From: Schmidtea polychroa
Lineage: Eukaryota
Direction: 5' to 3'
DNA length: 64,000 nucleotides
Assembly: GCA_044892525.1 (NCBI GenBank)
Contig: CM097885.1
Span: 23,746,001-23,810,000, forward strand
Shown here one piece after another: positions 5,378 to 63,115 of the stretch (position 1 is the first letter of the stretch; each line of letters opens with the position of its first letter). The notes under the pieces are model-generated. The model worked only from the letters and a program-made list of their open reading frames with translations. It was not told the DNA's origin and searched no databases. The translations under genes were made by a program, and so were the position numbers.

Positions 5378-6125
5378 ATGTGCGAGCCAAGTCTGCGGCC
5401 AAAAGGCCTTCAACCGTGCTTCTCCTGTGCGGACAAAAACGCGGATATAAGAAAATTAAACGAATACATTGGGGTATTGAAGAAGCGGATTGAAAATTAC
5501 GAGTGCACGTGGTTCTCCCCACCACAAATGGAGGAGAAAACCAAGGTATTACGGCTGGAGCACTGCAGGGACAGTCTCCTAGAAGAAAGCCGGTGCCAAC
5601 GCTTAACAATGGGAAGCCTTGCATAAGGTATATTCCGAGGCTGAAATCCAACGGAGGGTTCGGGAATACCCGATAAAAGATGGGGCAAATGTGTTCCCTT
5701 TGCATCATCAAGAAGAGGAACCACAGTTGCCAAAGACCAGTTGTATCGGGCATGGATGCCATTTCCCACCTCTGACGGATCCAATTCTATCCGGATCATC
5801 TAAGCCCAACGGTGGGTGTACGGAAACCACAGAAACTGCTACTGCGTCGATACCTATTTCTGACGATAAGCACCTCGCCTCGTCCGCCAAGAAGCGAAAA
5901 CACCCATCGCGGGCCGAGAATAATCAAAAGCAACAGGACACTATCGCCGTCCTGGAAGCGTCCCTGTTCGCAGCTCAAACAGCTAAAGAACAAGTTCCAA
6001 AGATAGATATGCCTGTCCCCAAGGAGAGCTTCAGGATAGTCTCCACAGAAATGTCTCACCTCCGAGAAGACGCCAGGCAACAGGTGGACATCGACGCCCT
6101 GTTAGCCGAGGGCGAAACGTTTTGA
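5378..6125 (+). pseudogene. Family A ORF, frameshifted near 5610
   Basis: ORFs 5378-5626 and 5619-6125 together align to the 42014 ORF (PCFSCADKN..TWFSPPQM..RLEHCRDSLLEE..YSE.E..RRV.E.P). Confidence 0.75.
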
Positions 6126-42200: not shown

Positions 42201-42723
42201 ATTGCCGGGATAGCCTATTGGAGGAAAGCAAATGCCAACGGCTCATGATCAAGGCCAAGTCAGAGGCCCTACATCAAATATACTCTGAATCCGAGTTAAA
42301 AAGGCGAGTCAAGGAGTTCCCAATAGCGGATAAGATGAATATTTTCCACATCCACTATCAAACGGATGAAATAACTTCATTAAAACCTTCTGGTTGTCAA
42401 GGCCATGGTCCCGACTTCCCGCCAATCGTCGCTTTTATCTTAGGCGGTGTACCACGTGCCAACGTTCCTCCGGAATCCACTCTTACTGAATCGTCACTCG
42501 TCGTATCTGTAGCACAATCAGATAGTCCAACAAAACTCAATTCCCGAAAAAGAAAACGTCCGACTCGTGCTGAGCGAACTCAACGACACCAAAGCAAAAT
42601 CACTGCACTAGAAGCCACGTTATTTGCGGCTCAGGAGGCTAACACAAAATCATCCAGTAGAAGTCTTATCGCACCACTCGCCACAGCTTCGTATCGAGTA
42701 ATCCCTTCGCAGCATCCGTGCTC

Positions 42724-43438
42724 AGTAGGGTATTGTGTGGACCCGGGAACAAAGACATATGACGTCATCGATGACGTCACAAAGACATATGANNNNNNNN
42801 NNNNNNNNNNNNNNNNNNNNNNNNNNNNNNNNNNNNNNNNNNNNNNNNNNNNNNNNNNNNNNNNNNNNNNNNNNNNNNNNNNNNNNNNNNNNNNNNNNNN
42901 NNNNNNNNNNNNNNNNNNNNNNNNNNNNNNNNNNNNNNNNNNNNNNNNNNNNNNNNNNNNNNNNNNNNNNNNNNNNNNNNNNNNNNNGTTGCGGTATTTT
43001 AAAATTTATATTACGTTGCGGTATTTTAAAATTTATATTACGTTGCGGTATTTTAAAATTTATATTACGTTGCGGTATTTTAAAATTTATATTACGTTGC
43101 GGTATTTTGAAATTTTAATTATTAAATATATTACGTTGCGGTATTTTGAAATTTTAATTATTAAATATATTACGTTGCGGTATTTTAAAAACTTATTTTG
43201 ATGGTTAAATAAAATAAAATTATTACACACAATACTCAGACAAAATATTCTGTTCCCCTATGGTCACACACACACAATGTATAAAAATATTATTTACACA
43301 CACGCAACAAGTTAGTGTTCTCATCGATATATTATTAATCTATATACTCCGAGTTTATCCGACAAAATATTCTGTCCCCCTATGGGTACTGCTAACAAGG
43401 GTACTGGTCGCGCTCAACAACTCGCAAGGGTATTATTA
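42724..43438 (+). repeat. Left terminal inverted repeat (about 700 bp or more, gapped), with a 27-bp tandem array at 42988-43190
   Basis: Reverse complement of 57810-58501 with a few indels. Repeat unit GTTGCGGTATTTTAAAATTTATATTAC. Confidence 0.92.
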
Positions 43439-43870
43439 NNNNNNNNNNNNNNNNNNNNNNNNNNNNNNNNNNNNNNNNNNNNNNNNNNNNNNNNNNNNNN
43501 NNNNNNNNNNNNNNNNNNNNNNNNNNNNNNNNNNNNNNNNNNNNNNNNNNNNNNNNNNNNNNNNNNNNNNNNNNNNNNNNNNNNNNNNNNNNNNNNNNNN
43601 NNNNNNNNNNNNNNNNNNNNNNNNNNNNNNNNNNNNGTAAATGTCACAAAGTTACTGTTAAAAAATATTCAAGACAAAACATTAACAAAGAAATTATACT
43701 TTAAATATACACTAAAATTTATTAACACACTGGGTAAAGGTGATAAAGGTAACTAACAAAACTTTAACATATTATTATTACACACAATGTATAAAAATTG
43801 TTCACAAAGTTACTGTTAAAAAATATTCAAGACAATATGACTAATACATTTATTAAATAATTTAAACACA

Positions 43871-46800
43871 TCATCGAAAATAATCATGTCCAAAATAATT
43901 ATCATCTGCTGGATCATGGAAATCATCTGTATCATCTGCTGAGATAGCTTCCGTTGAATCTATAAATATAACGGTGTCACCGCCCCTATAATGACCATAT
44001 GCCAAACTTTGATTTTTATCCACCCAATTTCGCTTATCATCTCTACATGTCAAGGCTCTTTTATTATTTTTAATACTAAAAAGTTGGTGATTTTTTGACG
44101 TTATTCTAAACTGAGGGACTGTGTATATTTTATCATTTAAATAACAATCTAGATACGACTGATGTGTTAGTCCAGTATCTTTCATACTTATCCCCTTAGC
44201 CTTCATACTTTCCTCATCACCCATCAAACTGTAACATTTAGGTCTCAAGAACACCCAATCTTTATATAATAACCCTTTATTCTCGTCTTTGAATTTACCA
44301 ATGACAGAATCAAGGTTCCTACTATATAAAGGATGATTTGGGTCATAATTCGAAGTATCTAATAATTGATCTCTAATCATCGCAGGTAAAAGAATGTCAA
44401 GACTACAATGTTTAATTTCCAAGAAGAAGGAATCTGTGTCTCCAGCAACGATATTAATTTCGCAGTTGAATTCGTCGCGATATTTTTGCAACTCTTCATA
44501 CTGCAGCTGGTACATCCTGAGTTTGGATAAATCAAGTACGGTTTGACCAATGTAACTAGGTCTATTCAAACATACTATGTCCTTCCTCAATAAAACCGAA
44601 ATCAAGTCATCATCGATTTTCGTGGATTTACGAAAAGTCGGTTTCGAACAGAATGTTAATAATCTCTGTGAAGAATTACACAGACGTAAATTAATACGTT
44701 TTTTAAGATTTTCAACAGTCTTGCCGTAAAGACTGTTGTTTAATAATTTATAAAAATTTTTATCGAGTTTATTTGTCGACGCTGCTCGTAACGCCGTATT
44801 TGTGTTAATATAATTTTTGAAAATTTTATCTTGTTTAAATTTAATTGCTCTATGTGTTTTTGATATTTTAACACCTAATTTAATAAATATTTGTAGAAGC
44901 CTCCAATGAAGAACGTAGTTCCTCTTGGGGCTGTGTGTAAGCAACAGCTTCTCTATTTTCGAACCCAGTACACACATCTTTTCAGCGGCAACGGGAAGAT
45001 CGTCCAGTTTGTCGTGAATTGACGTCGGTATTTCTAAATCCACTTCTATGGTATAACCATAATCAAGCAGATCTAAATCTACCGTTGTGCATTCAACAAT
45101 TATATTATTTAATAAATTATCATCAGTAACCCATTCAAAGTCACTGCAAGGTAATGGTTGACTTAAAGCCCAACCGTATAAATTATTTATATCTATGTAA
45201 AGCAAAGCGGTATCCGGGTCTGTTTTTACATAATGTTTATTTACAAAAGTTAGTCCGCCACGGATACCGCCCTCGAAAAAGTTATACATCTCCATATCGG
45301 TGAGGAGCTCAATTGGAGAGTTTAAAGTTAATAAGGCTGAATTCCAAGACATACCTGGAATCCCTAAGAAATTTAATGGCTCTAGTCGGTTATGAGCAAT
45401 GGACTTAGCTCTAAATTGCTGGAAAAAATCGGCTAAAAGGAAAACATCAAGTTTTAAATAAACCATCATGTAATCGAAAAGTGAAGTACATGAAGTTTCA
45501 ACCCAAATTCGCTGAGCTGTCTCATATTCAGCGGGAGTCACATCTTTCCAAATAGGAGGTAACTGATGAGTGTTATGCAAAACCTCTAATGAAGTTGCGG
45601 CATCATAAGGAAAAATTCCCTTTGCAGTTATTATTGTACCCTGAAATTCTGATTCGGTCAAGGGTAAAGATGATAAAGTTTTGACAGCATTATTTAAAGA
45701 CTCGCTGACAAATTGATAAGAGTCTATAAATTTAACAGTTAATGAGTCAATCCTAGCAAAAAGACTAAGGAATTTCTCGCTGGTTAAAGAAATACAACTA
45801 ATATTCCATGAATGATATTTTGAAAGGCCAAATTTCAAGATATGATGCAGATCATAACCCTTTAAATTATGAAATACTACAGGAAGGGTATGTCTAATTT
45901 GCCTCGACAGATTACAAGTTGTACAAGCGGCACCAAGATATAGACCGGTAAAATGATCATGGTCCCTAACTGGACTAACTAAAGGCTTATTGCACAAATA
46001 ACATGATGTGCTGTTTTCAAACATTAATTGTTGCTCATCTGTAATTATCATTTTCTTTTGATAATTTTTATAATAATAAGGAGTTACAATATATTTCCCT
46101 ATCATTTCAATTTCAGTAAGAAATTGATCGACACAATCTAAACCGGTGAACGACTTATAAATTTTTACGCCCGTGAAATTATTAATAAAAAGCATACCGG
46201 CAGAAATAGGCAGATGACGTTGAAAGTAGCGAGTGTCTTTAGGTAAGATAGCCTCAAAGTCAGCGTAAATAACAAAGGGAGGAGTAACTGTTTTACTCCA
46301 ATCAGTAAATTCTAAATATTTATTTTTAGGCAATGTGTACAAGGTAGTACCAAGCTGATTTTTATCGCAAAGACCCTTATGTCTATTAAAAGCGTCATCA
46401 TTCCTAAAACCGTTTAAACATCTAGGGCACCACTGACTACAAATCCTAACAGGAGTGATTGAACTATTCCTACAATTAAGAAATCTATTTAGGTCTGTGA
46501 TTCCAAGATAATGATAATTATCATTCTTTTCAATTAATAATAAATTGATAGGTATGGCTCCTACTATCTTACTCCTATATATTATATCAATAAAGGGATG
46601 TTTCATAACTGCATCTTCATCGGAAATGTCAATCAAAGCCCTTTCGTTATAAGTAAGAACATTAATACTATAACCCGGATTTTGTTGTTCAAATTTACTT
46701 ATATTTGATAGTTTCATCGGCATATCATTAGGATCAAATTTAATTTCAGAAAGATTGTAGGAATTAGGGCGATTTCTATATTGCCTATTTATACTATCAT

Positions 46801-47718
46801 ATTTAATAATTGACAAGAAACTATACAAAAAGCAGAAGTGGTCATTATTAACTACATTAACGAGACAGCTTAAGTTTCTTAAAGATTTTGGGGTTTCAAT
46901 AAAACTTCTACCACTTAACCGACTTATTTCAGCAAATTTAGTCAGAACAAAGCTTATGTATTCTATTTTATTGATAGTCCAATTACTACCTTTCTCATTA
47001 ATTTTAATTATTTTTTCATTTAAACGAGCAATACCTTCGTCAATGAATGTATCGCTCCAAACTCGGGCGGAATTCGAGATTACAAAAGATTGTAACTCAT
47101 CATCTTTTATAAATTCCACCTTTAGACAAAATTGAATTTTACATGATTTTAATTTATTTACATATAAATTTAATTTATTTATTAAAATGTCTGGTACAGA
47201 GACCGTTTTTAAATCTAAAGACGAAACGTCCATTTTTAATATAATATGATTATTATTTAAATCACTGGTGACATCTACGACACCATAACCTATTTGATTA
47301 TTATTATTATTATTACCATTATTATAATAAATATTACTACTACTATTATTATTATCAATTTCATCATCACTTATGTTGATTATTTCATCATCATCACTTA
47401 TGTTGATTATTTCAATAACTTTAGATTTTTTACTTGGTATTGAATTGATTTTTTCATTATTTTTTCTTTTATTCATATTAATTAGAATATTTATTTGATC
47501 ATTTAATTTATTTACTTGATCTTTTAGTTTAGTTATTTCGTTTATATCATTATTATTGGTGTTGTTAGTATTGTTGTTGGTGATATTATTATCATTATTG
47601 TTGATATTATTATTATTGTTGATATTATTATTGTTGTTGATATTATTAGTGTTGATATTATTATTAGTGTTGTTGATATTATTATTAGTGTTGTTGATAT
47701 TATTATTATTGTTGTTGA

Positions 47719-47749
<31 letters not shown>

Positions 47750-48425
47750 AAACGATTCATATAAGCTATAGAAAAGAGACTTCTTAGAAGGTTTAAATTG
47801 TTGGAGATGGAGTCTATGCTTATTATAAAATTCCTTATACGTTATAACTTCAATAACCTCACATTTAGGGCATAGGATGTAGGTGACACCGTTATATTTG
47901 TGACTATAATATCTTTCCATTATATCATCGCAGTCATTATGATATTGACTATTACAAAAGTTTTGGTATTTCAAACCTATGAAAATATTTTTATCATAAA
48001 ATGTTTAAAAAATAATAAGATAATAATCATTTTTAAAGTTTAAGATATTTTTCGTAAGATATTATTCAAAATTGACTTTTAAATAGTATCTTATAAGAAA
48101 TTATATATAATTTAATTCATTTTCATAAATAAATAATTCATTTTCTAAAATAGATTTTCATAAATAATATATAAAAGTTATTAATTATAATGTTCAAAAT
48201 CATCATCATATTTCATAAATCTTCTTTATAAAATCATCATAAATAAATAAATCTTCTTTTCATGAATAAATCTTTTCATAAATCTTCCTTTCAAAATTAT
48301 CATAAATCTTCTTTTCATGAATAAATCTTCTTTTCATAAATCTTCCTTTCAAAATAAGTAAATCTTCTTTTCATGAATAAATCTTCTTTTCATAAGTTTC
48401 TTCTTTTAATTATTATTATTATTAA

Positions 48426-48456
<31 letters not shown>

Positions 48457-48802
48457 ATTGTTTAAAAAAAAAAAAAAAAAAAAAACTTAAAAACTTATTA
48501 CAATAAATAAATACTTACATTTTCGTCCTTTCGAAAGAAATTTTCCAGCATCGGCACCATCAGAAGTATTTATTACATTTCCATCTAAAAGCATAATAAA
48601 AATAATAATGATAATAAGAGTAAACTATTACCATTTATTCTATTCATGTCTACATCTTGTCCGTCGATATTCATTTTAATTTGTTGATTAGTACCTAATA
48701 ATCATATTAAAAATAATAAAATAATAAAATAATAAATTTACCATTAATTCCTCCTACGATCTTTCCGTCAACTCTTTGAATATTGTTGTTGTTGTTGTTC
48801 AT
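43871..48802 (-). CDS. polB: Protein-primed family B DNA polymerase; predicted join(48742-48802, 48632-48694, 48519-48584, 43871-47976), 1431 aa
   Basis: Exo motifs YADFE, FHNLKGYD and YLKLDV. Pol motifs DINNLYG, KLLNNSLYGK and GDTDS. EndoVII-like Zn insert. The main exon is certain; the three upstream exons are predicted from phase-compatible GT-AG sites. Confidence 0.93.
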
Positions 48803-49232
48803 GTTGTTAAATATTGGTAATAGATTTTTAAAAGTGATGAAAAAATGAAAGTGTAGACTATATAAGAGAGATATTACAGGTTTTATTAACCGACCAATGA
48901 AAATAGAGATAGGATAGGAAAAGACACTACATGTTTGTTTATACAAACCATGATGAAATAATGACCTTTACATGTCTTTATTACTCAGTGCTTTGTTACT
49001 TTGCACTGTGCATGCACTGAACATGTAATAGTATTACATAATATTTTTAAACATAAAATTTAACAAATAATATATTAAACATAAAATAATAATATATTAA
49101 ACATAAAATAATAATATTTAACAAATAATAATAATATTTAACAAATAATAATAATAATATTTAACAAATAATAATAATATTTAACAAATAATTAAAATAG
49201 TCAACAAATAAAAATCATACAGTATACATTTA

Positions 49233-49644
49233 TTAACCATCAAATTTTTTATACAACAACCATGCCAAACAGTGTTGACCACATGTTTGAGTCAATGGAT
49301 TTTGAAACATAGTTTTATTATATACAATAGGTTTCCCAATTGTTTGAAGTTTTGATATCAACAAAGCAGGATAATAGAAACCCATAGGATCGAATACGAA
49401 TATATTACTAGGTTTCACATATATAGCTATCCAATGTTCTCCACCAAGATGAGACGAATGAGTATTGACGATTATGGCTTGATTATTGCTCAAATAAGGA
49501 ATTTTATCGAGAGGGAAAACACCTACAAATTCATTTCCTAATATTTGTTTTCCAATTCGATTAACCTGAACAGAACTACTTTAATAAAATTAAACAGTAT
49601 CAAAAAACTTACTCCATGACAACTTTTTGTGTTTCTGTATACAT
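49233..49644 (-). CDS. Adenain-like cysteine maturation protease, join(49613-49644, 49233-49575), 124 aa
   Basis: GVFPLD..VNT..GEHW..FD..Q..CG (His/Asp/Cys triad). A 37-nt GTAAGT..AG intron restores MYTETQKVVMDSVQVNRIG.., and its ATG directly follows the capsid stop (TAAATG). Confidence 0.9.
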
Positions 49645-50868
49645 TTATACTAGCACGGTTCTATTTGCAGTAATTTGAACTTCATTTTCAAATACTCCAT
49701 ATATTATAACATGTACCGGTTCAGTGATAGCTTTTGCAAACTTAATATCCAGTCGTAAATTCCCGTTTTGTGGTAGTTGACTCTGATTTAAATCAAAATC
49801 AGGGGCTAAAACAAATGTGAAAAATGGATATTTGCTTTTAAATTCTTCTAGAGTAATTCCACAATTCAAGTTTTTATCTAAGTAACCCAGATTTCTAACA
49901 ATACTCTGCATATATGTCGCACAGTAATTATCGCTTTCGAAATCTTGAGTATATGTTTCTCTATAATCAGTATTTTTCGACAAAGTCAATGAAGTAACAC
50001 CAAAATTTTTGAAAATTGAGCTGGAAGCAGTATAAGATCCATTATATTGCGTTTCACTTTGAAATGTTACCAGAATAAAATTAGGCATTCTTCTGTCACC
50101 AAATATTTGTTCTTTATAGAATGATGAAGCACCTTTAGCAATAGCAAATTGTACAATTTCCTTTGTTTTTAATGGATAAATTGCATGTTTTGAATTAAGA
50201 CCCAATTGATGACCAGCTAATACTGACGGGTCTACTCGAACTCTTCTCACCAATAATTTTGCATCAACTAATTGACATATTGGTGCACCAGTTGCACTAG
50301 TAAGAGTTAGTGCAGAATCGGACCTTTTCAATCTAATGTGTACATTAACTCCTGGTAGCAAATATTTCGGTTGATCCATAAAATCGAGTTGTAATGATGA
50401 GCACATAGTGAATGATTTTGAGCCTTTAACCCACTTTTTTCTTTCATCATCTGTTGCAGCATAACCCATAGGTGTAAGACAGGTATTTTTAGTATCAGAA
50501 TTGTAATTTAAAATAGTTTCTATCAAAGCCTTGTGAATGAATGTATTATTTCCGCCCTCAATCTTGATATTATTAAATCCCAACACTGCATCTTTAAATA
50601 GAGTATGAAACAGGAAATTGTTCGGTATTACATCTGCATTGGCATCCAAAACTTTTCTATCTTTATCTACAACCTTGATCTGGACAGTCAATAAAGTATC
50701 GTTCAAATCTAAATATTCAGTTTGCGAACCATTAATATAAAACTCGATATCATTTCTACTATCAGTAATTGAATTCATAGGAAAAACTTCCTCAAATGCC
50801 CCAAATTCTATTACAGCCTGGGGCGACGGTCTATCAAATATACATAATTCAGATTTACCACAAATCAT
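49645..50868 (-). CDS. Major capsid protein (double jelly-roll, hexon-like), 407 aa
   Basis: SELCIFD..IEFYING..YLDLNDTLL..NNFLFHTLF, typical of Maverick MCPs, in the expected position. ATGA overlap with the upstream gene. Confidence 0.9.
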   Translation of the reverse strand: MICGKSELCIFDRPSPQAVIEFGAFEEVFPMNSITDSRNDIEFYINGSQTEYLDLNDTLLTVQIKVVDKDRKVLDANADVIPNNFLFHTLFKDAVLGFNNIKIEGGNNTFIHKALIETILNYNSDTKNTCLTPMGYAATDDERKKWVKGSKSFTMCSSLQLDFMDQPKYLLPGVNVHIRLKRSDSALTLTSATGAPICQLVDAKLLVRRVRVDPSVLAGHQLGLNSKHAIYPLKTKEIVQFAIAKGASSFYKEQIFGDRRMPNFILVTFQSETQYNGSYTASSSIFKNFGVTSLTLSKNTDYRETYTQDFESDNYCATYMQSIVRNLGYLDKNLNCGITLEEFKSKYPFFTFVLAPDFDLNQSQLPQNGNLRLDIKFAKAITEPVHVIIYGVFENEVQITANRTVLV

Positions 50869-51227
50869 TTTGCAAATATAGTTCCATGTCCTTTCATTCG
50901 TTTGTTTATACGTGATATTCCATGTCTTTTACGTTTTGGAGCTGGGGCTGGAGGCGTATCTTTTTGAAACATACCTGCAACCCCTGGTAAAACTTTCCCT
51001 AATTCAGCTAAAGCATTTGTTTTTAGGGATGGTAATATTTTCTGTTCATTCATAATAACGTCTTTTGCAGTTTTCATACCAAAACTACCAATACGTTTAA
51101 GAATAGGCAATGCAAATCTACCAATTGTTCTCAACCATCCCGATCCGTACTGTTTACCAATAAAATATGGTAATTCGCCACCAGATTGGCTATCACTATA
51201 CATACTAATAATATCAGAATTTGCCAT
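50865..51227 (-). CDS. Small basic core-like virion protein, 120 aa
   Basis: Q-x-G-x-G motif (QYGSGW) followed by the amphipathic LRTIGRFALPILKRIG and a basic tail. Lies between the penton and hexon genes. Confidence 0.7.
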   Translation of the reverse strand: MANSDIISMYSDSQSGGELPYFIGKQYGSGWLRTIGRFALPILKRIGSFGMKTAKDVIMNEQKILPSLKTNALAELGKVLPGVAGMFQKDTPPAPAPKRKRHGISRINKRMKGHGTIFAK

Positions 51228-52287
51228 CTACTTTACGAAAATGTAGTGTCAAATGAGTTTTTGAGTCTTTTGGAAAGTTTATAAGTTTTCCACTATCGTC
51301 ACAAATATTTATTTCTATATTGTTTATACATGAGCTTGAAATTGGTAAATACATGGGATTATCTATATTTATATTGACAACTTCATCATGTTCATATTTT
51401 CCAATCCATACCGATTTCAAAAGAGGAACACTGGAATCACCAACAATTATGGGTTCGATAATGTTAGTATATATGAACATTTGTTGATGATGTTCTAGTA
51501 TTCTTGGTTTGCGTATACCAGTCGATTTTTCTCGATATTTTTGCCTATCTAATCCAAGTGAATTTGCCAAATTTTTATCAAATGTAACTTCGCAAATGTC
51601 ATCATTCAAACTGAAGGTAAACATCAAATCTTTCACAATTTCCAAATTTTTAAATATGTGTGAACAATTGAACTTTAAATATTTAAGTAAATCATCAAGT
51701 TTATCAAAATATAATTCATCAGCAAAGGTAAATGATTCTTCAACTTCATCATTATACGACACAGATATTTTGATTTCTTCTTTCATTACACTGTTTGCTT
51801 CAAATAGATTAAAACGTAATAAATACTCGGTCTCCGTAACAATATATTTCAACTTATTGCAACCCATTCGTTTGGCATCTTCAATAGTTTCGAATGTTAT
51901 TGTAAACGGTTTAAAATCACAACTGATATTTAATCCATCCTTGTAAAACATATAGCAATGCGAATCTAATATTTGATTCGGAATATGATATGTTTTATCA
52001 TAATTACTAATAACAAAGATACCGCTACATGTTTTCACAATATTCCTTCTGAAATCAATCTTACAATGACTATAAAATGGGAATGTGTTGTACACAAATG
52101 TAAAATCTTGCAGTGCAACTTCCCAGTCCCCATTTAAAGAAATCGGATTCTGGAGATTGACCATAGATTTACTGGCTTGATTGTCTGGATGAATTAATGG
52201 GCAACTATTGCTTGGTAAAATAGTATAAAAATTCACTTTACTAGATCCTTTTCTGATATCCATGATGGGTTTTGATAACCATGCCAT
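51214..52287 (-). CDS. Minor capsid protein (penton-like), up to 357 aa
   Basis: FYTILPSNS..N..S..V.LQNPI.L.GDWEVAL and MFIYTNII..VGDS.VPLL..YLPI..IEINI.D. Confidence 0.87.
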   Translation of the reverse strand: MAWLSKPIMDIRKGSSKVNFYTILPSNSCPLIHPDNQASKSMVNLQNPISLNGDWEVALQDFTFVYNTFPFYSHCKIDFRRNIVKTCSGIFVISNYDKTYHIPNQILDSHCYMFYKDGLNISCDFKPFTITFETIEDAKRMGCNKLKYIVTETEYLLRFNLFEANSVMKEEIKISVSYNDEVEESFTFADELYFDKLDDLLKYLKFNCSHIFKNLEIVKDLMFTFSLNDDICEVTFDKNLANSLGLDRQKYREKSTGIRKPRILEHHQQMFIYTNIIEPIIVGDSSVPLLKSVWIGKYEHDEVVNINIDNPMYLPISSSCINNIEINICDDSGKLINFPKDSKTHLTLHFRKVDGKF

Positions 52288-53352
52288 TTGACATAGTATT
52301 GTTTATCCTTGCCGACCTTTTTAGTTTTCAATATCTTTTGAATTCTAAATACTTTTGGAGGAGGAATAACTTGTAATTCTTGCTCATAAAATTTTCCTTG
52401 TACAATATTGTTATCATAATCACTGATGACATACATTACAGGATTCTGACTAGTATTTATTTTTGAAATTACAAAGACTTCATCACTCCAATTTGTATCG
52501 AAATTTTTAATAAATGGTGATGCACTAATTTTACTAATTCTAACATGGTCACCGACTTTATATTTAGGTTTTGCAATTTTTACAGATTTCTTAGAAGTCA
52601 ATGTTTTTGATGTAATATCAACCGGTCTTAATCCATTAAGTCCTCGATGTGATGAATGATTATAACTTGTTATTATTTTCGGTAAAGCATTTACCCATTT
52701 TTTATTACCTTGATGCACGAATAATTTCTTTAATCTATCTCTCAATGTTCTGTTAAATCTTTCAACATGAGCAGCTTTGTATTGAGAATGTACCGAGTAA
52801 TGGTTTATTTTCAATTTATTGAGGATTTGCTTGACTTTACTNNNNNNNNNNNNNNNNNNNNNNNNNNNNNNNNNNNNNNNNNNNNNNNNNNNNNNNNNNN
52901 NNNNNNNNNNNNNNNNNNNNNNNNNNNNNNNNNNNNNNNNNNNNNNNNNNNNNNNNNNNNNNNNNNNNNNNNNNNNNNNNNNTATTAGGATGTCCATCTT
53001 TAAATAAAATATTAATTGCCTTGGACATTTCATCTGAAGATTTTGCCTTGACGGGTATTGCTCGGGCAAACCGACTGAATACATCAATACATGTTAAAAT
53101 ATATTTATTCCCATTGTTAATTTTCGAATAAGGTATCATCTCCATCAAATCCATTTGCCATAAATCATTTATTCCATATGTTTTATATACTCTTGTTGGG
53201 AATCGTTTCTGCATTGGTTTGTTCAAACTGTACGCAAGCTGGTCTGATAACCACTTCTGGGTTTCCTTTTTCGAATTCGGAACTCTTTTGTTTAATTTTG
53301 CCACTCCACCGAAACCGGCTTCGTCTTCGGGGTTCGTCCAAATCTTCTCCAT
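52233..53352 (-). CDS. int: Retroviral-like DDE integrase with C-terminal chromodomain (spans the N-gap 52842-52982)
   Basis: WQMDL..YILTCIDVFSR..HVERFNRTLR..YNHS.H and YYVKWHGY..SWI. The frame change across the gap is a gap-size artefact. Confidence 0.92.
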
Positions 53353-53413
53353 TACAACAAGAAGATTTAATATTAAATTTAATGTCTGGTAATGAAGGAT
53401 TAGCACCCATTGT

Positions 53414-53908
53414 TTATGATCGACTTCCTATTATTCCACCTAATAATGATATTGCTAAAGGTATCAATGCACCGATAAATCCCCCTTGTTGTTTATATAT
53501 AATTTTTCTCATTTGTTGACGATTTTTATTATTTACTAATGATAGCAAAGGTTTCCTATGTTTACTCAATAATTGCTTTTTAGATTTACTGATTTTAATC
53601 TTGCCTTTGACTACTTTAAGTATAATATCGAGTAAATCATCGACAACATAATTTGGAAAAGATTGTAAAATACTGTTTCTTTTCATACTGGGTGCTTTTA
53701 ACAATGTATTGAAAAACGGGAAACTCCGATGATTTTTAACAACTTTTACTTTCTTAGTGGTTTTACTTTTAGGTTTAGGTTTAGGATTTTTCGAAATAAG
53801 ATTCATTGCAGGAAAATTTTCTGTAATAAGTTCTTTAGATGGAGTATAACTAGTTGTTGGTGGAACTTTTGGTTGTTTTTTACTCGATATCCTTGTTTTT
53901 GAAAACAT
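53414..53908 (-). CDS. Lys-rich protein with adenovirus pX-like C-terminus, 164 aa
   Basis: Ends KQQGGFIGALIPLAISLLGGII, resembling pX (RGGILPLLIPLIAAAIG) with an xGG cleavage-type site. Confidence 0.7.
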   Translation of the reverse strand: MFSKTRISSKKQPKVPPTTSYTPSKELITENFPAMNLISKNPKPKPKSKTTKKVKVVKNHRSFPFFNTLLKAPSMKRNSILQSFPNYVVDDLLDIILKVVKGKIKISKSKKQLLSKHRKPLLSLVNNKNRQQMRKIIYKQQGGFIGALIPLAISLLGGIIGSRS

Positions 53909-53921
53909 GATTTATATGTTT

Positions 53922-54560
53922 TCAATTTTGTTTTGAACTTTGTTTATAAACCATGGCACCTTTTGGGTTGAAAATATCTGTTTTTACCCGTATATCATCA
54001 GGACATTGTTGTGTGAAATCGAGAAATATATACCCATGAGGTATTTTCGTAGCATCTTGAAATGCATTGATAAGAAAATTACGGTTATTAGGGTATGCTT
54101 GTCGTCCAAGAAAATCAATGACAGTTGCATCTCTAGGATTCTTGAAAATAACTAGATATTGTACATTTAAATTACGTGTTCGATGTGCCCCACCTTGATG
54201 AAATAAATTTTGTGTTATGAAAATAACTGTTACACCAACATGTCTGCTGATTTTTGTGAATAAATTATTAAAATCCTTTTCTTTATTGGCTTCTTGATAC
54301 AAATCATCGATAATGATTACATCATCTTTCTTCAAACGACTTGACCAGTTTTTATCAAAACCCTTTACTATTTTCATGTTTTTCAATTGACAGAAACTTG
54401 ATTGTGTCAATCCATGTTCTTCATCGGCGCCCCTATGCCAATAAATATTGTTGAATTTTGTTTTGAACAAATTTGATTTTAGTAATTTACAAACAAATAA
54501 TGTTTTTCCGCTACCACTTGGACCAACGATTTGGTATACTGCATCATTTCGTAATTCCAT
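53922..54560 (-). CDS. A32/FtsK-like genome-packaging ATPase, 212 aa
   Basis: Walker A GPSGSGKT, Walker B IIIDD, SRH arginine finger and ITQNLF. Confidence 0.93.
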   Translation of the reverse strand: MELRNDAVYQIVGPSGSGKTLFVCKLLKSNLFKTKFNNIYWHRGADEEHGLTQSSFCQLKNMKIVKGFDKNWSSRLKKDDVIIIDDLYQEANKEKDFNNLFTKISRHVGVTVIFITQNLFHQGGAHRTRNLNVQYLVIFKNPRDATVIDFLGRQAYPNNRNFLINAFQDATKIPHGYIFLDFTQQCPDDIRVKTDIFNPKGAMVYKQSSKQN

Positions 54561-54572
54561 TTTTTAAATTTA

Positions 54573-54639
54573 AACTATATATAATTATTGTTTATATTGA
54601 TAATTTAAATGAACTCCTTTTTAAAATAACTATATATAA
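54573..54639. promoter_or_regulatory. Divergent promoter with two AACTATATATAA boxes
   Basis: Identical 12-mers at 54573-54584 and 54628-54639 in the 107-bp gap between the head-to-head ATPase and TBP-like genes. Confidence 0.55.
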
Positions 54640-54667
54640 CAGAGTTTTTTATAATTATTTCATTAAA

Positions 54668-55132
54668 ATGCTTTCAAATATAAATTACAGGGCAAAAGCT
54701 GATGTATCAAAAATGGTATTTCCAATGGGGAAACCACAACAACTCATCAATAGAAGTAAAAAATATCCAATAATATATTTCAAAACTGGTAAATGTAGAA
54801 TTATGGGGTGTAAGGAAATAATCAAAGCTAGTGAATATAATGTTTATGATTTAGAAATACAATCGATAACCATAACTTCCGATATAGGTTTTTCTTGTAA
54901 TTTAAATAAATTGGCTAAATTAATACCATGCTTTTACGAACCAGAATTATTTCCAGCTTTGAGATATATAAAATATAACCCTATGTGTGTAAATATATTC
55001 GCTAGCGGTAAGATAGTAATTCTTGGAATAAAAAATATTGATTACAAATGTATAGTTGATAATATCATATCTGAAATTAAATCAATAATTGAAGGAAATG
55101 AATTTTTAGATTTTTTATTATCACTTAATTAA
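54668..55132 (+). CDS. Divergent TATA-binding protein (TBP) homologue, 154 aa
   Basis: Repeat 2 FYEPELFPALRY..NPMCVNIFASGKIVILGIK resembles canonical SYEPELFPGLIY..KPKIVLLIFVSGKIVLTGAK. Repeat 1 IYFKTGKCRIMGCK resembles LIFASGKMVVTGAK. Confidence 0.85.
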   Translation: MLSNINYRAKADVSKMVFPMGKPQQLINRSKKYPIIYFKTGKCRIMGCKEIIKASEYNVYDLEIQSITITSDIGFSCNLNKLAKLIPCFYEPELFPALRYIKYNPMCVNIFASGKIVILGIKNIDYKCIVDNIISEIKSIIEGNEFLDFLLSLN

Positions 55133-55253
55133 TTATTTATCATTACAAATTCAATGCAATTGAAATGCATGATTCTGATTGGTCGAAATCTAATTGGCTG
55201 ATGATTATTTATAACAAAATGTTTTCGGTTTAGTTGTCATTTATTCAACAAAA

Positions 55254-55661
55254 ATGTACAACATACAAAGTTCCGCAATCACCTCAATGAAAGAGCATGC
55301 AAATTATGGTAATTTCAAATTTTTATTATTACATTAATATATATATTTTACAGATGAATATCAATCAATTATCCTGCAAAGATTATGCTTCTATTATCCA
55401 GAATTAAATGAAATTCTACAAGATAGAGATAAAGCTATCATTCCGGATTTGGTATACAACCAAACACGAATCTGGATATTTGATATAATAAACACCTTTC
55501 TATGGGATATCAAGATAGGAAGGGGGATGAAAGAAATGAAACCAGAGGCTCCTTGCATTTTCGGATGTAGCTGTTGCAATTTCCGTTATCAACAATATGT
55601 TGAATGGTGTTTGGTGAAGACTCTGAGAAATCACCACTCGAGTCAGATTGTATCAAAATAA
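55254..55661 (+). CDS. Unknown Cys-rich protein, join(55254-55308, 55354-55661), 120 aa
   Basis: A 45-nt GT..TTTTACAG intron contains an in-frame stop. Spliced product MYNIQ..ANYDEYQS..PCIFGCSCCNF. Confidence 0.75.
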
Positions 55662-55793
55662 ATTTTTATGTTGAATTGTTTTGTTTTTGTAAATCGAAAT
55701 AATAGAAATAATAATAATAATAGTAATAGAAATAGTAATAATAATATAAGTAATAATAGTAATAAAAAACAATATTTATAATAAAAACATTAA

Positions 55794-56411
55794 TGCAACA
55801 TTAATGCAAATGACATGCAATTTAAACAAAGACATACAGCAATCTGATTGGTTGATAAACAATAGTCATAGGTATAAAAACCCTGTACCATTTCATTTTA
55901 ATCATAATTCACGATGACAAAGAAAATTTCAAGCACTGAAAAGCCAAAAGTTGTTCCAGAACTTGTAAAACCTGTTCAAATGTTCCACAACTATAAAATG
56001 TATTTTTTAAAAGAAGAAATCAATATGAAATTGGCGTCGCCGATCAAGCTAATTCCAACTAAATTTCAATTCTTATCCGGCACGCTTTCAATGATAGATA
56101 TTAAATCTATTGATGAGGTTTTCAAACGGTTGAATACGAATCTATCTTGTAATCAACATGCCTGGTTCAACAACAGATATGCAAGATTTTATGATTCCTT
56201 TGATGAAATCGGTTTCAAAGAAAACGAAAATTGGTATATAACAATTGCAATCCAAGGATATAAAGTAGATAATAATGATGTGTATTCTCCAATTTGGAAA
56301 ATTATGTCTGCTAGACTTTCACAACTATTTTAATGTTATATTTAATAAATGTATTAGTCATATTTGTTTTTTCTCTTTATTAATTGCAACATTAATGCAA
56401 ATGACATGCAA
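55794..56411 (+). promoter_or_regulatory. Duplicated 27-bp promoter module containing the octamer ATGCAAAT
   Basis: TGCAACATTAATGCAAATGACATGCAA is identical at 55794-55820 and 56385-56411, each upstream of a gene. Confidence 0.7.
55914..56333 (+). CDS. Unknown 139-aa protein (possible OB-fold ssDNA-binding protein)
   Basis: Clean ATG ORF with its own GATTGG+TATAAA promoter and AATAAA. The fold guess is weak. Confidence 0.65.
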   Translation: MTKKISSTEKPKVVPELVKPVQMFHNYKMYFLKEEINMKLASPIKLIPTKFQFLSGTLSMIDIKSIDEVFKRLNTNLSCNQHAWFNNRYARFYDSFDEIGFKENENWYITIAIQGYKVDNNDVYSPIWKIMSARLSQLF

Positions 56412-56460
56412 ATTTAACAAAGAAAATCTATAAACAAACTTATAATATAGTTTTAAAGTG

Positions 56461-56786
56461 ATGAAAATGACTGCAGAAAAAGGTTAACATGATTAATTAA
56501 ATACTGAATTATTTATTATTTAGAATTATTAATCAACTTTTTGTTGGAAAAATTAGCAGAAATATCTGGTGTAAAAATTGAGGATATATTATCTGTTACA
56601 AATGCATTAAATATCGGCTGGGTAGTTGAGAGTCAAGATTCAAGATTTGAAGAAACCGATACTCAAGAAATTGATGACGAAATCTATGAACCTAAAGATA
56701 ATATTACGAATGATTGTATTGATCATGTCGTTGAAAATATAATGAAATGTGGAGATGACGATTGCGAATGTGTTAATAAATTTTAA
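56461..56786 (+). CDS. Unknown acidic protein, join(56461-56482, 56524-56786), 94 aa
   Basis: A 41-nt GT..TTATTTAG intron supplies an ATG in frame: MKMTAEKELLINF..EETDTQEIDDE..KCGDDDCEC. Confidence 0.7.
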
Positions 56787-56830
56787 AATTGAATTATTTT
56801 CATTTAAATATACTATTAAAAACAATAACA

Positions 56831-57359
56831 TTAATTTTTATTCATATATCTACAGAAAATATACATTATAACAACTCCAGTTGTAAGTTTTATAAAGTTT
56901 TTCATTTTTCTTTTGATTTCATCAGTTTCTTTAAAATTGCAGGCCAGTTTATTTAATACACCCCATCCGCCATTGGCTTCTATCCATGGGGTAAACTTGG
57001 ACTTGATTATCTAGAAATGAATATTATTAAAATATAGATTATAAAAGAAATCTTACTTCTAAAGACCACTGATAATAATGTTCTGAGTCATGTTGACCTT
57101 TTGCAATGATTATCTTCATGTAGGTGAATCCTACAATTATCCTTGTCCATTTCATGTCTTCATCGAAAAGACACTGAAATATTCTATTGAAGTAATACTT
57201 CTTGGTTTCCAGGGATTCCATCTCCATCATCTGCTGATAATCGATATGTTCACCTTCAATGATTTGTTCGGTTCGATTGATCAGGAAATTGAGGCTGTCG
57301 ACTATATTCGCGGTGACAATTCCGTTTAGAACATTTTCCATAAAATTTGGTTGCGACAT
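56831..57359 (-). CDS. Bcl-2-family protein, join(57057-57359, 56831-57010), 160 aa
   Basis: BH1-like LFDEDMKWTRIIVGF. A 46-nt GTAAGA..TTCTAG intron brings in BH2 WIEANGGW and the hydrophobic tail LTTGVVIMYIFC followed by RYMNKN. Confidence 0.85.
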
Positions 57360-57809
57360 TTCTAAATTAATTTAAAATATAATGTTTTATTTATACTAAT
57401 ACCATATGATTTTGATTGGTTGATAGACTATAAATGTAAAAGAAAGGTTTTGATTTGATACACCATAAAAACTGTATTGCTAATTATTATTATAACGAGT
57501 GTGTGCTAACACAATACTATAAATTTTATAATATTCGACTATGTTTTTTGTTAACTNNNNNNNNNNNNNNNNNNNNNNNNNNNNNNNNNNNNNNNNNNNN
57601 NNNNNNNNNNNNNNNNNNNNNNNNNNNNNNNNNNNNNNNNNNNNNNNNNNNNNNNNNNNNNNNNNNNNNNNNNNNNNNNNNNNNNNNNNNNNNNNNNNNN
57701 NNNNNNNNNNNNNNNNNNNNNNNNNNNNNNNNNNNNNNNNNNNNNNNNNNNNNNNNNNNNNNNNNNNNNNNNNNNNNNNNNNNNNNNNNNNNNNNNNNNN
57801 NNNNNNNNN

Positions 57810-58501
57810 TAATAATACCCTTGCGAGTTGTTGAGCGCGACCAGTACCCTTGTTAGCAGTATCCCATAGGGGGGACAAAATATTTTGTCGGATAAACTCG
57901 GAGTATATAGATTAATAATATATCGATGAGAACACTAACTTGTTGCGTGTGTGGACATTAATAATATTTTTATACATTGTGTGTGTGACCATAGGGGAAC
58001 AGAATATTTTGTCTGAGTATTGTGTGTAATAATTTTATTTTATTTAACCATCAAAATAAGTTTTTAAAATACCGCAACGTAATATATTTAATAATTAAAA
58101 TTTCAAAATACCGCAACGTAATATATTTTTAAAATACCGCAACGTAATATAAATTTTAAAATACCGCAACGTAATATAAATTTTAAAATACCGCAACGTA
58201 ATATAAATTTTAAAATACCGCAACGTAATATAAATTTTAAAATACCGCAACGTAATATAAATTTTAAAATACCGCAACNNNNNNNNNNNNNNNNNNNNNN
58301 NNNNNNNNNNNNNNNNNNNNNNNNNNNNNNNNNNNNNNNNNNNNNNNNNNNNNNNNNNNNNNNNNNNNNNNNNNNNNNNNNNNNNNNNNNNNNNNNNNNN
58401 NNNNNNNNNNCCGGGGGGTGGGGGGTATGACGTCATATGTCTTTGTGACGTCATCGATGACGTCATATGTCTTTGTTCCCGGGTCCACACAATACCCTAC
58501 T
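57810..58501 (-). repeat. Right terminal inverted repeat (gapped)
   Basis: Mirrors the left TIR, with a 27-bp array at ~58069-58278, a G-tract at 58411-58425 and TGACGTCA sites. Confidence 0.92.
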
Positions 58502-59078
58502 GTGCTCCAATATGATCCGCATCTATAGACAGATATTGATGCGATGATAAAAGAAGGAGAGTTGATGTGAAAAGATCCGATTCCGTACCTCGAGAGATGA
58601 ACTATCGTTCCAGCCAAAACGTATCGGTCATTGTTTAGTATAGACACTGTACAAGACTTTATATGATCTATCGGTGTTAATTCTTGTCGTATGCAATAGA
58701 ATTCGTTGAAAAGGGCCTCGTGTTCTCACATTTTCATACGAAATTATGTAGAAAGGTGTTATTTTCTAAATCCGTCATTATGTCGAAAAACCAAGAATTC
58801 TGAAGTCGTCTCACTGAACCAGAGACAGACCGTGGTTAGAAAGACGAGTAGCGTAGATGTAAGTCCTTCTATCGATATTCAGGAACCCGTACAGCAAATA
58901 TTGTGAATAGTAGTCATAATGCAGGGGCTAACCTGTTCGGAAGTTCCAACCCGAGTGTGCAGCACCAACATGACATATCATCATGGGCACACATGAGGGA
59001 GATCATTGTCAAGTCATGACGGACATTTACTGAATTCGACAGTGAATAAATAACATTCCCCTAAGTCACCAGCAAAAG

Positions 59079-59610
59079 TATCTATCACTCATGGGTTTCG
59101 CCGAATTAGATATTATAAAAGACTGAAATTGTCCATCTTTTCAAATTCTACATCTATGCAGAATTGAATTTTAACATATCCCATTTCGGATATAACAGAA
59201 TTTAATTTAGTTATAAATGGTGCAGGGATAATTAATTTTTTTAAATTTAAAGAAACTATTTCAACAATTATAACCACCATATTGAACAATATTTTCGTCA
59301 TTTGATGAATAAACATCTTCATCATCGGAAATTACGAATAGTTTCGATGGTTGTGGACAAACAGTAACCATTCGTCTTTTATTTAGACTAATAAATGCAA
59401 AAAGATTCTTCTTTGTACAAGAAAATTGATTTAAATGTGCACAGTGTTGACTATAAAAGTCAGAAAAAGTTATATTTTGGAAGCTCTTACAAATGGGACA
59501 TATAAAGAAGGTGACTCGTTTATTCACATGTCGATAGTATTTTTTCATTATTTTATGGCAATTGCGGTCATCATGGACTTTACATTGACAATAATTCGGG
59601 TAAAGATTAC
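59079..59610 (-). pseudogene. polB: N-terminal fragment of the older Polinton polB
   Basis: YPNYC..HDD..C..IMKKYY..CPIC..H..HL.QF and KIQFC..EF..QSFIISNSA align to the intact PolB N-terminus. Confidence 0.8.
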
Positions 59611-60489: not shown

Positions 60490-63115
60490 CAGTGAAGATT
60501 CAGAAAAAGAAACTTCTTTGACACAAAATTCGAAAAAAAGTTTCTTTTTCTGTAAAAAGTTTATTTTTGTGAATTTAGTGTACAATTTTATTTTGTGTGC
60601 AAAAACAACAATTTCTAAGTACATTTTAAAGTAAATATTATTTTATATTTATCACTAAGCAATTAGAAATAGCATATATAACGAAAACAAACTTTTATTG
60701 TAGAAAACACTAGTTCATAATCTTCTTTAAAGTTATTTTGTCTCTGATATTGCGAAGAAACAATATATCAGAATAGGATAAATTAGATTCGGCCCAATTA
60801 AGAGTTACATTTACGCTCCTGAGTACAATGTTAACATCAGGGCTTGAAAAGTCACCACTATTGTCTGCATCATCCATATTAATATTTTCAATTATTTCGC
60901 CCTCGGTAATTAATGATCTTGACATTTCGTTACTTCCTCTTGCCCAATTCAATATCTGCTCGTCATTCATATTATCTCCTGGAACTACATGGTGGTAAAG
61001 TTCTATTAATGGAATTTCATCCTCTTCTAAAAAGTGATTCTGTGGCAAATTAAAAATTATTTCATCAACTGAGCAGAACAGATGCTTAAAACTAGAATTG
61101 ACTGTTTAATATTAACTTCATTCCATGCCTCCACCACCATGTAAACAACTTCTTTCAATGTAACGTGCTTTAATTTTTCGTCTAAATTTTGAATTCAAAT
61201 TTTACTCGTTTTGGAAAGTTTTGGAATTCAAATTTTTGACAATTAATCCAGTTTCATCTGCGTTGTATATTTGCTCAGGTCACAATCCTAGCCGTTGAAT
61301 ATTCGTCTTAAAATTTTCAATAAATGCAGGTACAGCAGAATCATTAGCGGATAATTTTTCTCCACAAATTTTGAGGATTCGAATTGAATGCCGTTTTTTA
61401 AATTTTTGAATCCAACCGTGGCTGCCTGAAAACAAAATGTCAGAGTTCAAATCACGATGAAATTCTAGCGCTTTGATTCTAAGCATATCATCGTTAATTA
61501 TGTTATGCTTGAGTCTCTCATTTAAAAACCACTGATAAAGGGCCTTTTCAATATCTGAAAATTTAACTGTAGAAATTCTCTTAATTTTGTTCGTAGACTG
61601 GATAGAATTCTTTGCAAATTCTTTTATGTTTTCTTTATTATTTCTGATCTTAGAAATTGTACTTTTATTCACACCGTATTGTGCGCAAATATTGTTGGCT
61701 TTGGTACCATCTTCCAATGCAGTCAGGATATTACATTTATTCTCAATTGTTAGTTTCTGTTTTCTTTTATTCATAGCGGGCCTAACAAATGCTATTTTTG
61801 AATATTTAATGTTTAAAATTGAATTTTATAGTACATACTAAATAGCTTCATTAACAGTGCAATACCTCAGGTATAATAAATTTAACGTAAATCAAAAGTT
61901 ATTTGAAAATTTAGCAATGTTAAACATTTACGTTTGTTAGGGATAGGCCCCTGGCCTTAAATTATTTTAGAATCAGTTTTTTATTTTCATGCTAATTTAG
62001 AAATTATTATAAAAGGGATTAACTTTTTTAGGACACGCGAGAAATAATAGTTGTAGCAGCTTGCAGAAAAGGAGTGATTAGCAACAGTCAAAGAGAATTA
62101 TAATTACTTGAGATAGATTAGGCGAAACAATCAGCGTGGAATTATATTTTAGTTATTTAAGAGGAATCCCAGAAAGAATAGAGAGAATATACCAGCTGTG
62201 GTCATAAAAGAAAGCAATTACAATGAGCTTCAAAAATCCATAGGGATTAAATAAGTAATTTCAAATATTTACCAGCCGTTGATTTGAGAAGAATTACTTG
62301 AACACAGCTGTTGTATTAGAGAAAGAAAAGTCAAGATCAAAATACAGCTGTGCTCAATAGACTATAAATGGAAAGCAACATTGTTGGAAATTAGTTGTGA
62401 AATTGGCAGAGCAGAAGAAACTAGAATATTTTAGAAAAGAAAAGGGACGATAAACATTGAGAAGAATTATTTACGAACAGAAACGAGAATATTTAAAAGT
62501 AAAATTTAATTAATTTAATTAAATATAAGGGTGAGTGAGGATAAATTAGTATCCTGTGGAATAGTTAAAATAAAGCGAACGCAAAGTATTGTTCTATTAC
62601 TTTAGTGTTCCCTGGGAGCCTCAAAATCATTCCCTCTTGCTTGCCCAACTCTTTTAGTCATATTGCGATCGTTGTGCTACACAGGAGCCATCGATTTCTT
62701 GCAGACTGTTGACAACAGTAGGGATCAAAGAATCCGTTTTCTTGTATTCTTTGCACATTAATTGTAAAGCAACTTTTTGTAAATTATTGAATACATTTTT
62801 GTAAAAAGTGAAAGAGTTTGTTTTGTTTTTAATTCAGTGATTTGAACTTACACGCGCAACCACATTAAATATAATCTATTTATATTTATTTTTATTTATT
62901 TTTCTTAATTAAATTATTGGAGTCATTTGTGTTAAGATCTGTAGTCCCCGTTTTTCGATCTTAACACGTTAAACAAAATAAACAAAGCAAAATTTTCAAA
63001 AGTTCCTTTTATTGAATCACTTTTTTAATTTGAATCAAAAAAAGTTTCTTTTTACGTTAGTTTCTTTTTGTGAAAAGTTTCTTTTTGCGAAGTTGCCTTT
63101 TGTGAATCGTTACTA
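60490..63115 (-). mobile_element. Degenerate pogo/Tigger element (transposase relic 60710-61774)
   Basis: CENP-B-type HTHs (S.GWIQKFKKRH..CGE), IYNADETG and an internal deletion. Imperfect TIRs CAGTGAAGATTCAG.. and ..GAATCGTTACTA, with TA on the left. Confidence 0.75.
61936..62864 (+). mobile_element. Possible solo-LTR-like insertion inside the pogo element
   Basis: TGTTAGG...ACCACA with LTR-like composition and AATAAA. No TSD found. Confidence 0.3.

Follow-up and report, generated by a model that had tools for sequence, protein, structure and literature searches.

The window analysed here is a 64-kb stretch of planarian DNA (64,000 nt), and its minus strand carries a Bcl-2-family gene at 56831-57359; the plus strand of the same interval has no long frame. 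An ATG at 57359 opens an ORF of 106 aa (57039-57359, minus strand), whose stop lies 5 codons past a GTAAGA donor at 57056. Exon 1 (57057-57359, minus strand; 303 nt, 101 codons, phase 0) spans helices 1 to most of 6 and aligns to residues 15-126 of a host relative. It is followed by a 46-nt, phase-0 spliceosomal intron (57011-57056, minus strand; GTAAGA...TTTCTAG), which sits at the same site in sister lineages, and by exon 2 (56831-57010, minus strand; 59 aa plus stop), which contains BH2 and a short hydrophobic tail with basic flanks. The spliced product of the window's gene is 160 aa long. The intron boundaries read GAA/GTAAGA ... ATTTCTAG, with the acceptor TTTCTAG ending at 57011, and the GC content of the intron is 15% versus 36% and 29% in the exons. 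Only 3 GT-AG pairs bring BH2 in frame, and every one of them uses the same donor.

Splicing was checked in the contigs of 4 public runs (X1-X4), of which X1 and X2 come from one study and are presumed to be RNA. Contigs of X1 and X2 contain the joint 57010/57057, flanked by CT..AC ends, and those of X3 and X4 lack it; an X3 contig traverses the intron unspliced. Run X2 additionally has poly-A loose ends at 56360 and 56787, behind two neighbouring genes. The nature of X1 is unsure because it also contains unspliced sequence across the element, protease region included; X1 and X2 both have no cover at 57446-57550. We found no intronless DNA source for the joint: among 150 scored exon-2 copies (1933 candidates), which were 98-100% identical (37 at 100%), none had an open frame longer than 62 aa. 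As no intronless DNA copy of the window's lineage was seen, no DNA copy seen could mimic the joint. The gene is transcribed and spliced in the contigs of at least one study. The first-pass annotation had proposed a hidden spliced gene with precisely this intron and a 160-aa product, leaving the minus strand unstated, and the exact joint in X1 and X2 bears this out; the splice check that it had called for thus came out positive in 2 of the 4 runs, both from a single study of guessed RNA status, and negative in X3 and X4.

It had likewise noted that the ORF track ends after BH1 and that splicing adds BH2 and a C-terminal tail, and this holds, since the ORF stops 5 codons into the intron and both features lie in exon 2. 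The BH1-like motif KWTR (57152-57141, minus strand) keeps the Trp and Arg but not the Asn and Gly of the NWGR of A1 and Bak, to which it aligns. BH2 is WIEANGGW (56986-56963, minus strand), which aligns to WIQENGGW of Bcl-xL and fits the motif W-I-x-x-x-G-G-W. The tail (56896-56852, minus strand) is short, has the basic flanks of a tail anchor and aligns to the host tail; its best 15-residue and 19-residue Kyte-Doolittle means are 1.9 and 1.1 (1.6 and 1.3 in the host relative), and anchoring of the protein in a membrane by this tail is likely. The canonical BH3 consensus, Leu...Gly-Asp, characterises the pore-forming Bax/Bak subgroup. The helix-2 region at the BH3 position (57258-57305, minus strand, placed by alignment) reads IVDSLNFLINRTEQII and has no Gly-Asp, as in the host donor, the intronless lineage and every other member aligned, which argues against a Bax/Bak-like killer.

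Profile and structure searches gave a graded picture of family membership. Exon 1 alone scored 20.3 bits (E 8e-4) against the Pfam Bcl-2 family (PF00452), below the cut-off of 31.4, which is passed by the intronless lineage D (32.7), the host donor (46.2) and sister copies with in-frame introns (32-34.5). Among solved structures, exon 1 matched A1 and Bak best (E 0.1 or more), and the family profile matched the pro-apoptotic Bak best (E 8e-5). Bcl-2 clusters ranked first for exon 1 in the language-model Atlas (0.93, a weak recognition value). AlphaFold2 models of the two sequences folded, exon 1 alone and the intronless lineage-D protein, had low pLDDT (60 and 65, respectively) with a helix order that fits the bundle, and Foldseek ranked Bcl-2 proteins top with these low-confidence models, but only at E 0.1 or more and TM of about 0.3-0.4; the wide VIA structure search listed no Bcl-2 chain. 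The lineage-D protein reached a pLDDT of 82-83 in a complex run (see below). Homologue searches with the 106-aa ORF returned only 3 ENA proteins, all of them exon-1 read-throughs without splicing (63-99% identity), and a profile search returned 2 matches among 1.84 billion representatives, one of them a host-type orthologue. An exact look-up of 5 window proteins in the protein collection found none, and none of 168 pattern matches in metagenome contigs was confirmed as a relative. Two of 6 viral contigs matched (42% over 40 residues, E 7e-4), which we judged to be chance.

The decisive link to the Bcl-2 family is a collinear cellular protein of planarians. Exons 1 and 2 align end to end, with a gap-free junction, with residues 15-126 and 127-182 of the 184-aa Bcl2-like protein of Schmidtea mediterranea (ACW83059.1 / C9WPR4), to which they are 21-27% identical and which itself matches Bcl-xL best among solved structures (E 4e-9). 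This protein shares with the window's product the collinear exons, a BH1 without Gly (RWSR), the lack of a canonical BH3, BH2 and a tail anchor. It differs in being cellular and single copy and in having its intron right after BH2, with none at the element's site.

The gene lies in a Maverick/Polinton of 15,778 bp (42724-58501), where it is the first gene inside the right terminal inverted repeat. The ends of the element read AGTAG...CTACT, and its terminal inverted repeats, partly covered by N, measure at least about 700 bp. A 6-bp target-site duplication, GTGCTC, flanks the element on the left (42718-42723, plus strand) and on the right (58502-58507, plus strand). On the minus strand, the element encodes a protein-primed PolB (43871-47920; PF03175, E 5e-29), an adenain-type cysteine protease (49233-49617; PF00770, 28.4 bits, cut-off 21.3; a 115-aa frame without an in-frame ATG), a retroviral-type integrase with chromodomain (52233-53352; rve, E 6e-7; halves in different frames across an N stretch) and an A32-like packaging ATPase (53922-54560; PF04665, E 2e-7). 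Also on this strand is a 407-aa ORF (49645-50868) that is 77-89% identical across lineages and has no match in Pfam, PHROGs or PDB; by position and size it is a putative major capsid protein. Two conserved ORFs of 120 and 357 aa beside it (50865-52287, minus strand) are, by position, putative core and minor capsid proteins, and the 357-aa one likewise gave no library match. The plus strand carries a TBP-like accessory gene (54500-55132; PF00352, E 1e-14), with counterparts about 50% identical in lineages B, D and E, and two accessory ORFs (55914-56786; 139 aa and a 92-aa acidic frame) that converge on the Bcl-2 gene. The polymerase, integrase, ATPase and protease, together with the terminal repeats and 6-bp duplications, place the element in the Maverick/Polinton class. 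A TBP-like match beside the host locus L043 was traced to a separate decayed element and not to a host gene.

At least 150 near-identical copies of the Bcl-2-bearing element are present in the genome, which comprises 781 Mb in four large contigs, and over a 601-bp stretch the window's sequence recurs unchanged in 24 of 40 scored copies (the window's own place counted). Nine copies, picked for 100% identity at the Bcl-2 gene, were fetched, and 8 of them have their own matching and distinct 6-bp target duplications; such near-identical copies with target duplications of their own indicate a young element family. The putative capsid gene is open in 7 of the 9, and 2 keep the Bcl-2 gene without polymerase and capsid genes. 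Internally deleted copies (L127-L128 and L131-L132; one of 6.6 kb) lack polymerase and capsid genes, and in these both ends, the target duplications and the whole Bcl-2 gene are preserved. More distant lineages vary in organisation. In lineage D (L061-L066) the gene order differs, running PolB, Bcl-2, 139-aa gene, TBP, and the C-terminal tail is different too; the ATPase and putative capsid of this lineage are 77-81% identical to those of the window, and its Bcl-2 protein about 22%. A rearranged lineage-C copy (L069-L071, C1:203685000-203714999) has 3-kb inverted arms with a Bcl-2 gene at both ends. Elsewhere (L031-L037, C4:89.9-90.8 Mb), seven near-identical, apparently intronless Bcl-2 copies of the NWGR type are clustered, by tandem expansion or assembly artefact.

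The host locus most closely tied to these genes is L042, which is 89% identical to the S. mediterranea Bcl2-like protein (the orthologue was noted at L042/L082). All 5 of the 5 element lineages tested scored best against L042 among 8 host paralogue loci and a Burro-like domain, and for the window's exon 1 the score was 31.9 bits, with the next best at 13.4. L042 is single copy, in that its 150 scored genome matches comprise itself and multi-copy element-type sequences (20 fetched and inspected). The Maverick Bcl-2 gene was therefore likely captured from one host Bcl-2 paralogue of the L042 type, judging by sequence comparison. This origin also bears on BH1, where the motif is RWSR in the host donor, KWSQ in another, planarian-like orthologue, CWSK in lineage D, TWSR and KWSR in others and KWTR in the window's group. 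Since the donor already lacked the glycine, its loss is older than the capture, and only the change from Ser to Thr arose in the element. The Gly-to-Thr change reported at first pass is accordingly real as a motif, KWTR, but is no viral invention, given Ser in the donor (RWSR), in the orthologue (KWSQ) and in other element lineages.

The introns record a further difference between donor and element. At L042, a GT directly follows the GGW of BH2, as it does in 5 of the 8 host paralogue loci (L042 included), and we take this position to be the usual intron site of the Bcl-2 family. The last (second) exon of L042 lies about 3 kb downstream, and the locus has no intron at the element's site, which is nine codons before BH2. 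Conversely, none of the element genes has an intron after BH2, from which capture as a spliced or intron-stripped copy can be inferred. The GT at the window's intron site was present in 20 of 26 intron-lineage loci inspected (30-85% identity to the window's exon 1), and the other 6 were decayed. Where an in-frame exon 2 was found, introns of sister lineages were 38-54 nt long, many of them not a multiple of three. In lineage B (L046, L059, L060) the intron is an (ATT)n tract of 42-51 nt, and in lineage F (L105, L110, L113) it holds a (TA)n tract and measures 38-44 nt or more. At the window's intron site, the frame continues uninterrupted in all 3 lineage-D loci and in the host gene. The simplest history would be that a spliced or intron-stripped copy was captured and that a new intron was then gained inside the element.

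In a tree of exon 1, intron-bearing lineages grouped together (support 70/93), all elements grouped at 43/32 and elements plus the host clade at 53/30, with long branches flagged. The tree omits two host loci whose domains are interrupted by introns (L043 and L045), and the lineage-D copy L098, which has BH1 substitutions and was dropped between tree runs. With this low support at the base of the tree, and with one residue missing from lineage D where the intron would sit, there may have been one capture or two, or an imprecise loss of the intron in D; a second capture or such a loss could be the explanation for this lineage. The phylogeny with intron positions that had been suggested at first pass therefore gave a nearest cellular relative, L042, and distinct intron sites, with low support at the base.

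Both exons show the signature of constraint. Rough Nei-Gojobori estimates of dN/dS, with dS near saturation, were 0.07-0.15 for exon 1 (5 of 6 lineage pairs, one being saturated) and 0.06-0.46 for exon 2 (6 of 6 lineage pairs), and purifying selection acts on both. Even lineages of only about 30% identity still have the Trp and the basic residue of BH1, the BH2 motif and the tail.

The explanation that we favour, at rather better than even confidence, is that this is a spliced and selected Bcl-2 gene of a young Maverick, probably captured from a host paralogue, whose product would be a putative tail-anchored pro-survival protein that binds host BH3 helices; the pro-survival function itself is a prediction we hold to be moderately probable. 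Under this model, transcription of the gene would start just within the terminal repeat of the element and the host spliceosome would excise the intron, as seen in the contigs. The protein, presumably anchored by its tail, would bind pro-death proteins of the host by their BH3 helices, and the carrier cell would thereby survive while the element copies itself; linear DNA ends, breaks made by the integrase and lost PIWI silencing may be the pressures toward death of that cell. A setting for expression is suggested by PMC8532177, where Polintons are described as among the classes most strongly repressed by nuclear PIWI in planarians and as rising during differentiation. The donor might be the planarian bcl2-1, knockdown of which is reported to kill the animal (PMC6970515); an accession search gave no match.

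Structural modelling is consistent with groove binding for a related protein. The lineage-D protein, about 22% identical to the window protein and used here in place of the window's own product, scored 0.75 in a complex with a BH3-like host exon, versus 0.02 for the best of 3 controls, and the modelled BH3 leucine sits in the groove beside BH1 residues 68-72 of the lineage-D protein. The partner exon, which had no PDB match, is presumably Bax-like. Of solved pairs, 51 of 78 microbial and 39 of 65 eukaryotic ones attain the complex-score mark, as do 2 of 108 and 2 of 126 mismatched pairs, respectively; contact agreement between runs was at least 81% and partner pLDDT at least 57. Because Bcl-2:BH3 is a textbook pair, the score may reflect memory of solved structures and raises the odds only little. 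The BH1 glycine of Bcl-2 and Bcl-xL is needed for Bax binding, and we counted the Thr at this position of the window protein against our favoured explanation.

The gene might instead be no gene at all, that is, a passenger or chance reading in which a decayed host fragment is interrupted by a frameshifting insertion mistaken for an intron. Exon 1 alone does fall under the Pfam cut-off and the folds gave no clear answer, but the exact GT-AG joint in contigs, an intron of 38-54 nt at the same site in lineages down to about 30% identity and dN/dS well under 1 in both exons already largely refute this reading, which we consider very improbable. More serious, though still rather unlikely, is a protein that retains the Bcl-2 fold and acts outside the BH3 groove, in autophagy, innate immune signalling or membrane traffic, like several poxviral Bcl-2-fold proteins. 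Against it stand the conservation, over the same range of identity, of the BH1 Trp and basic residue, BH2 and tail anchor, and the lineage-D model, in which the BH3-like helix is predicted to occupy the canonical groove. A pro-apoptotic protein or dominant-negative decoy, timing cell death for release of element DNA or particles, could draw on the match of the family profile to Bak and on viruses that trigger apoptosis for release (PMC5691641). Helix 2 without a canonical BH3, the Bcl-xL matches of the host donor and the cost of hundreds of transcribed, spliced germ-line copies if these were lethal to cells all speak against this, and we regard it as improbable.

A true viral Bcl-2 serving a particle-forming infection cycle, current or recent and cell-to-cell or animal-to-animal, is compatible with the anti-death reading and adds to it, and we consider such a cycle a real but less than even possibility. 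The polymerase, integrase, packaging ATPase and adenain protease would fit it, as would a putative capsid gene that is 77-89% identical across lineages and open in 7 of 9 copies (chosen for 100% Bcl-2 identity); vertebrate Mavericks have been argued to be viral from purifying selection on such genes (PMC8097293). The same source states that no Maverick particle had been observed as of 2021. Moreover, the putative capsid has no library match in Pfam, PHROGs or PDB, the distinct 6-bp duplications in 8 of 9 copies speak of integration and not of infection, 2 of 9 copies retain the Bcl-2 gene after losing polymerase and capsid genes, and viral and metagenome contigs gave only two weak 40-residue matches. 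Nor does the cargo decide the matter: carrier survival would aid an element with particles or one copying within the genome alike, so the Bcl-2 gene is no proof of productive infection, and the giant LTR retrotransposons of the same genome carry their own, different Bcl-2 domain, so the gene does not by itself show an infection cycle. The claim at first pass of a productive infection cycle is thus unsupported as stated, young insertions with target duplications being also explained by intragenomic copying.

The first-pass annotation had further described the gene as a viral Bcl-2 analogous to adenovirus E1B-19K. What remains of this is a Bcl-2 gene in a virus-like element that is an analogue in its likely role; the gene descends from a host gene, and neither exon 1 nor its relatives had a Pfam match to PF01691 (Adeno_E1B_19K), so that membership in that family is not indicated by sequence. 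E1B-19K is, like the window's product, a small Bcl-2-family protein with BH1 and BH2, from a virus of the pPolB lineage (PMC5691641, PMC7022251), and differs from it in that the window gene descends from a host paralogue. An Atlas cluster with 20% Adeno_E1B_19K members was the top look-alike of lineage D (0.93, a weak recognition value) and ranked 11 for exon 1 (0.86). Reviews of viral Bcl-2 proteins give precedents for both groove binding and non-apoptotic roles (PMC5691641, PMC7022251).

Bcl2 homologues have already been reported in adintoviruses/Polintons (Starrett et al. 2021, PMC8502044; section 3.2 and three labels in Supplementary Fig S2), which, like the window element, have anti-apoptotic-type Bcl2 accessory cargo beside pPolB, integrase, ATPase and protease; the main text and the text of Supplementary Fig S2 of that account hold no planarian, flatworm, intron or traced host donor. 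In vertebrate Mavericks (Barreat and Katzourakis 2021, PMC8097293), the core genes are the same as here, the size range (12.7-24.6 kb) fits, and terminal repeats and 6-bp target duplications are likewise present. Their intact elements are described in that source as having no introns, whereas the window element has a spliced Bcl-2 gene and probably spliced integrase and protease genes. A BCL2-like domain is also reported from the Burro giant LTR retrotransposons (PMC6431247), which are, like the Maverick, large mobile elements of a planarian host. Unlike the Maverick gene, this domain lies in frame within a polyprotein of up to about 3000 aa, near protease, RNase H and integrase; its BH1 is different, and the Maverick genes are far less similar to it than to the host donor. 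The Burro domain is likely an independent capture by these comparisons, and a common Burro and Maverick Bcl-2 clade was not rejected (AU p 0.30).

The literature covered, with Repbase and most subscription journals outside it, yielded no description of a planarian Polinton Bcl-2, of a spliced one or of introns in Polinton genes, and the available parts of PMC11071296, PMC10680173 and PMC10157310 hold nothing on a Maverick Bcl-2 gene. The window element is hence no new kind of system. Bcl-2 cargo in Polintons is known, and what we did not find in print is a traced donor, the swap of introns and the further introns of integrase and protease. Polinton Bcl-2 cargo has so far been a label on genome maps, and here donor gene, intron history and spliced transcript can be traced. 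Because planarians offer RNAi, single-cell data and PIWI biology, the benefit of an anti-death gene to an endogenous DNA virus-like element is testable in them. The element also supplies examples of intron gain that are dated and span several lineages, a rarity, and it illustrates that annotation by ORFs only undercounts Maverick genes.

Other genes of the element have similar insertions. In the integrase gene (52233-53352, minus strand) of sister copies and lineage B (L120, L130, L134, L068), a tract of the form GT(ATT)n...AG, variable in length, splits a TTAG/GT site, and the lineage-D integrase (L061) has no insert at this site; judged from its sequence, the insert is probably an intron of microsatellite type that arose within the element. 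Lineages A, B, D and E all have ATGGA/GTAAG upstream of the protease frame, and the protease gene probably opens with a small exon of just its first codons, followed by a short intron. No spliced joint for the proposed protease intron was seen in the 4 runs, and in the capsid/integrase module X2 covers 12 of 30 bins; neither observation speaks for or against expression. Speculatively, and with less conviction than for the favoured function, planarian Mavericks may have become spliceosome-dependent, with introns gained in at least three genes (Bcl-2, integrase and protease), some as (ATT)n at AG/GT, the host intron of the captured Bcl-2 swapped for another and, with Burro, both giant classes of planarian mobile elements having evolved a brake on apoptosis; we think this doubtful as a whole. 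If it were true, hundreds of spliced element copies would shift the death threshold of the cells expressing them, and Mavericks and Burro, by separate captures, would each brake the very active cell-turnover apoptosis of their host.

The rest of the window is rich in other repeats. The Maverick is inserted in a repeat at 42014-42723, whose short ORF (...PCFSCADKN...) recurs at 28613-28993, 5378-5626 and 940-1299. DNA transposon remnants lie at 12174-13267 (Tc1/mariner-like), 14410-16668 (a 752-aa frame without a family match), 20865-22077 (hAT-like) and 61280-61774 (pogo/CENP-B-like). Short PolB-like fragments at 37901-38290 and 59261-59548, outside the terminal repeats, are likely older decayed Maverick pieces.
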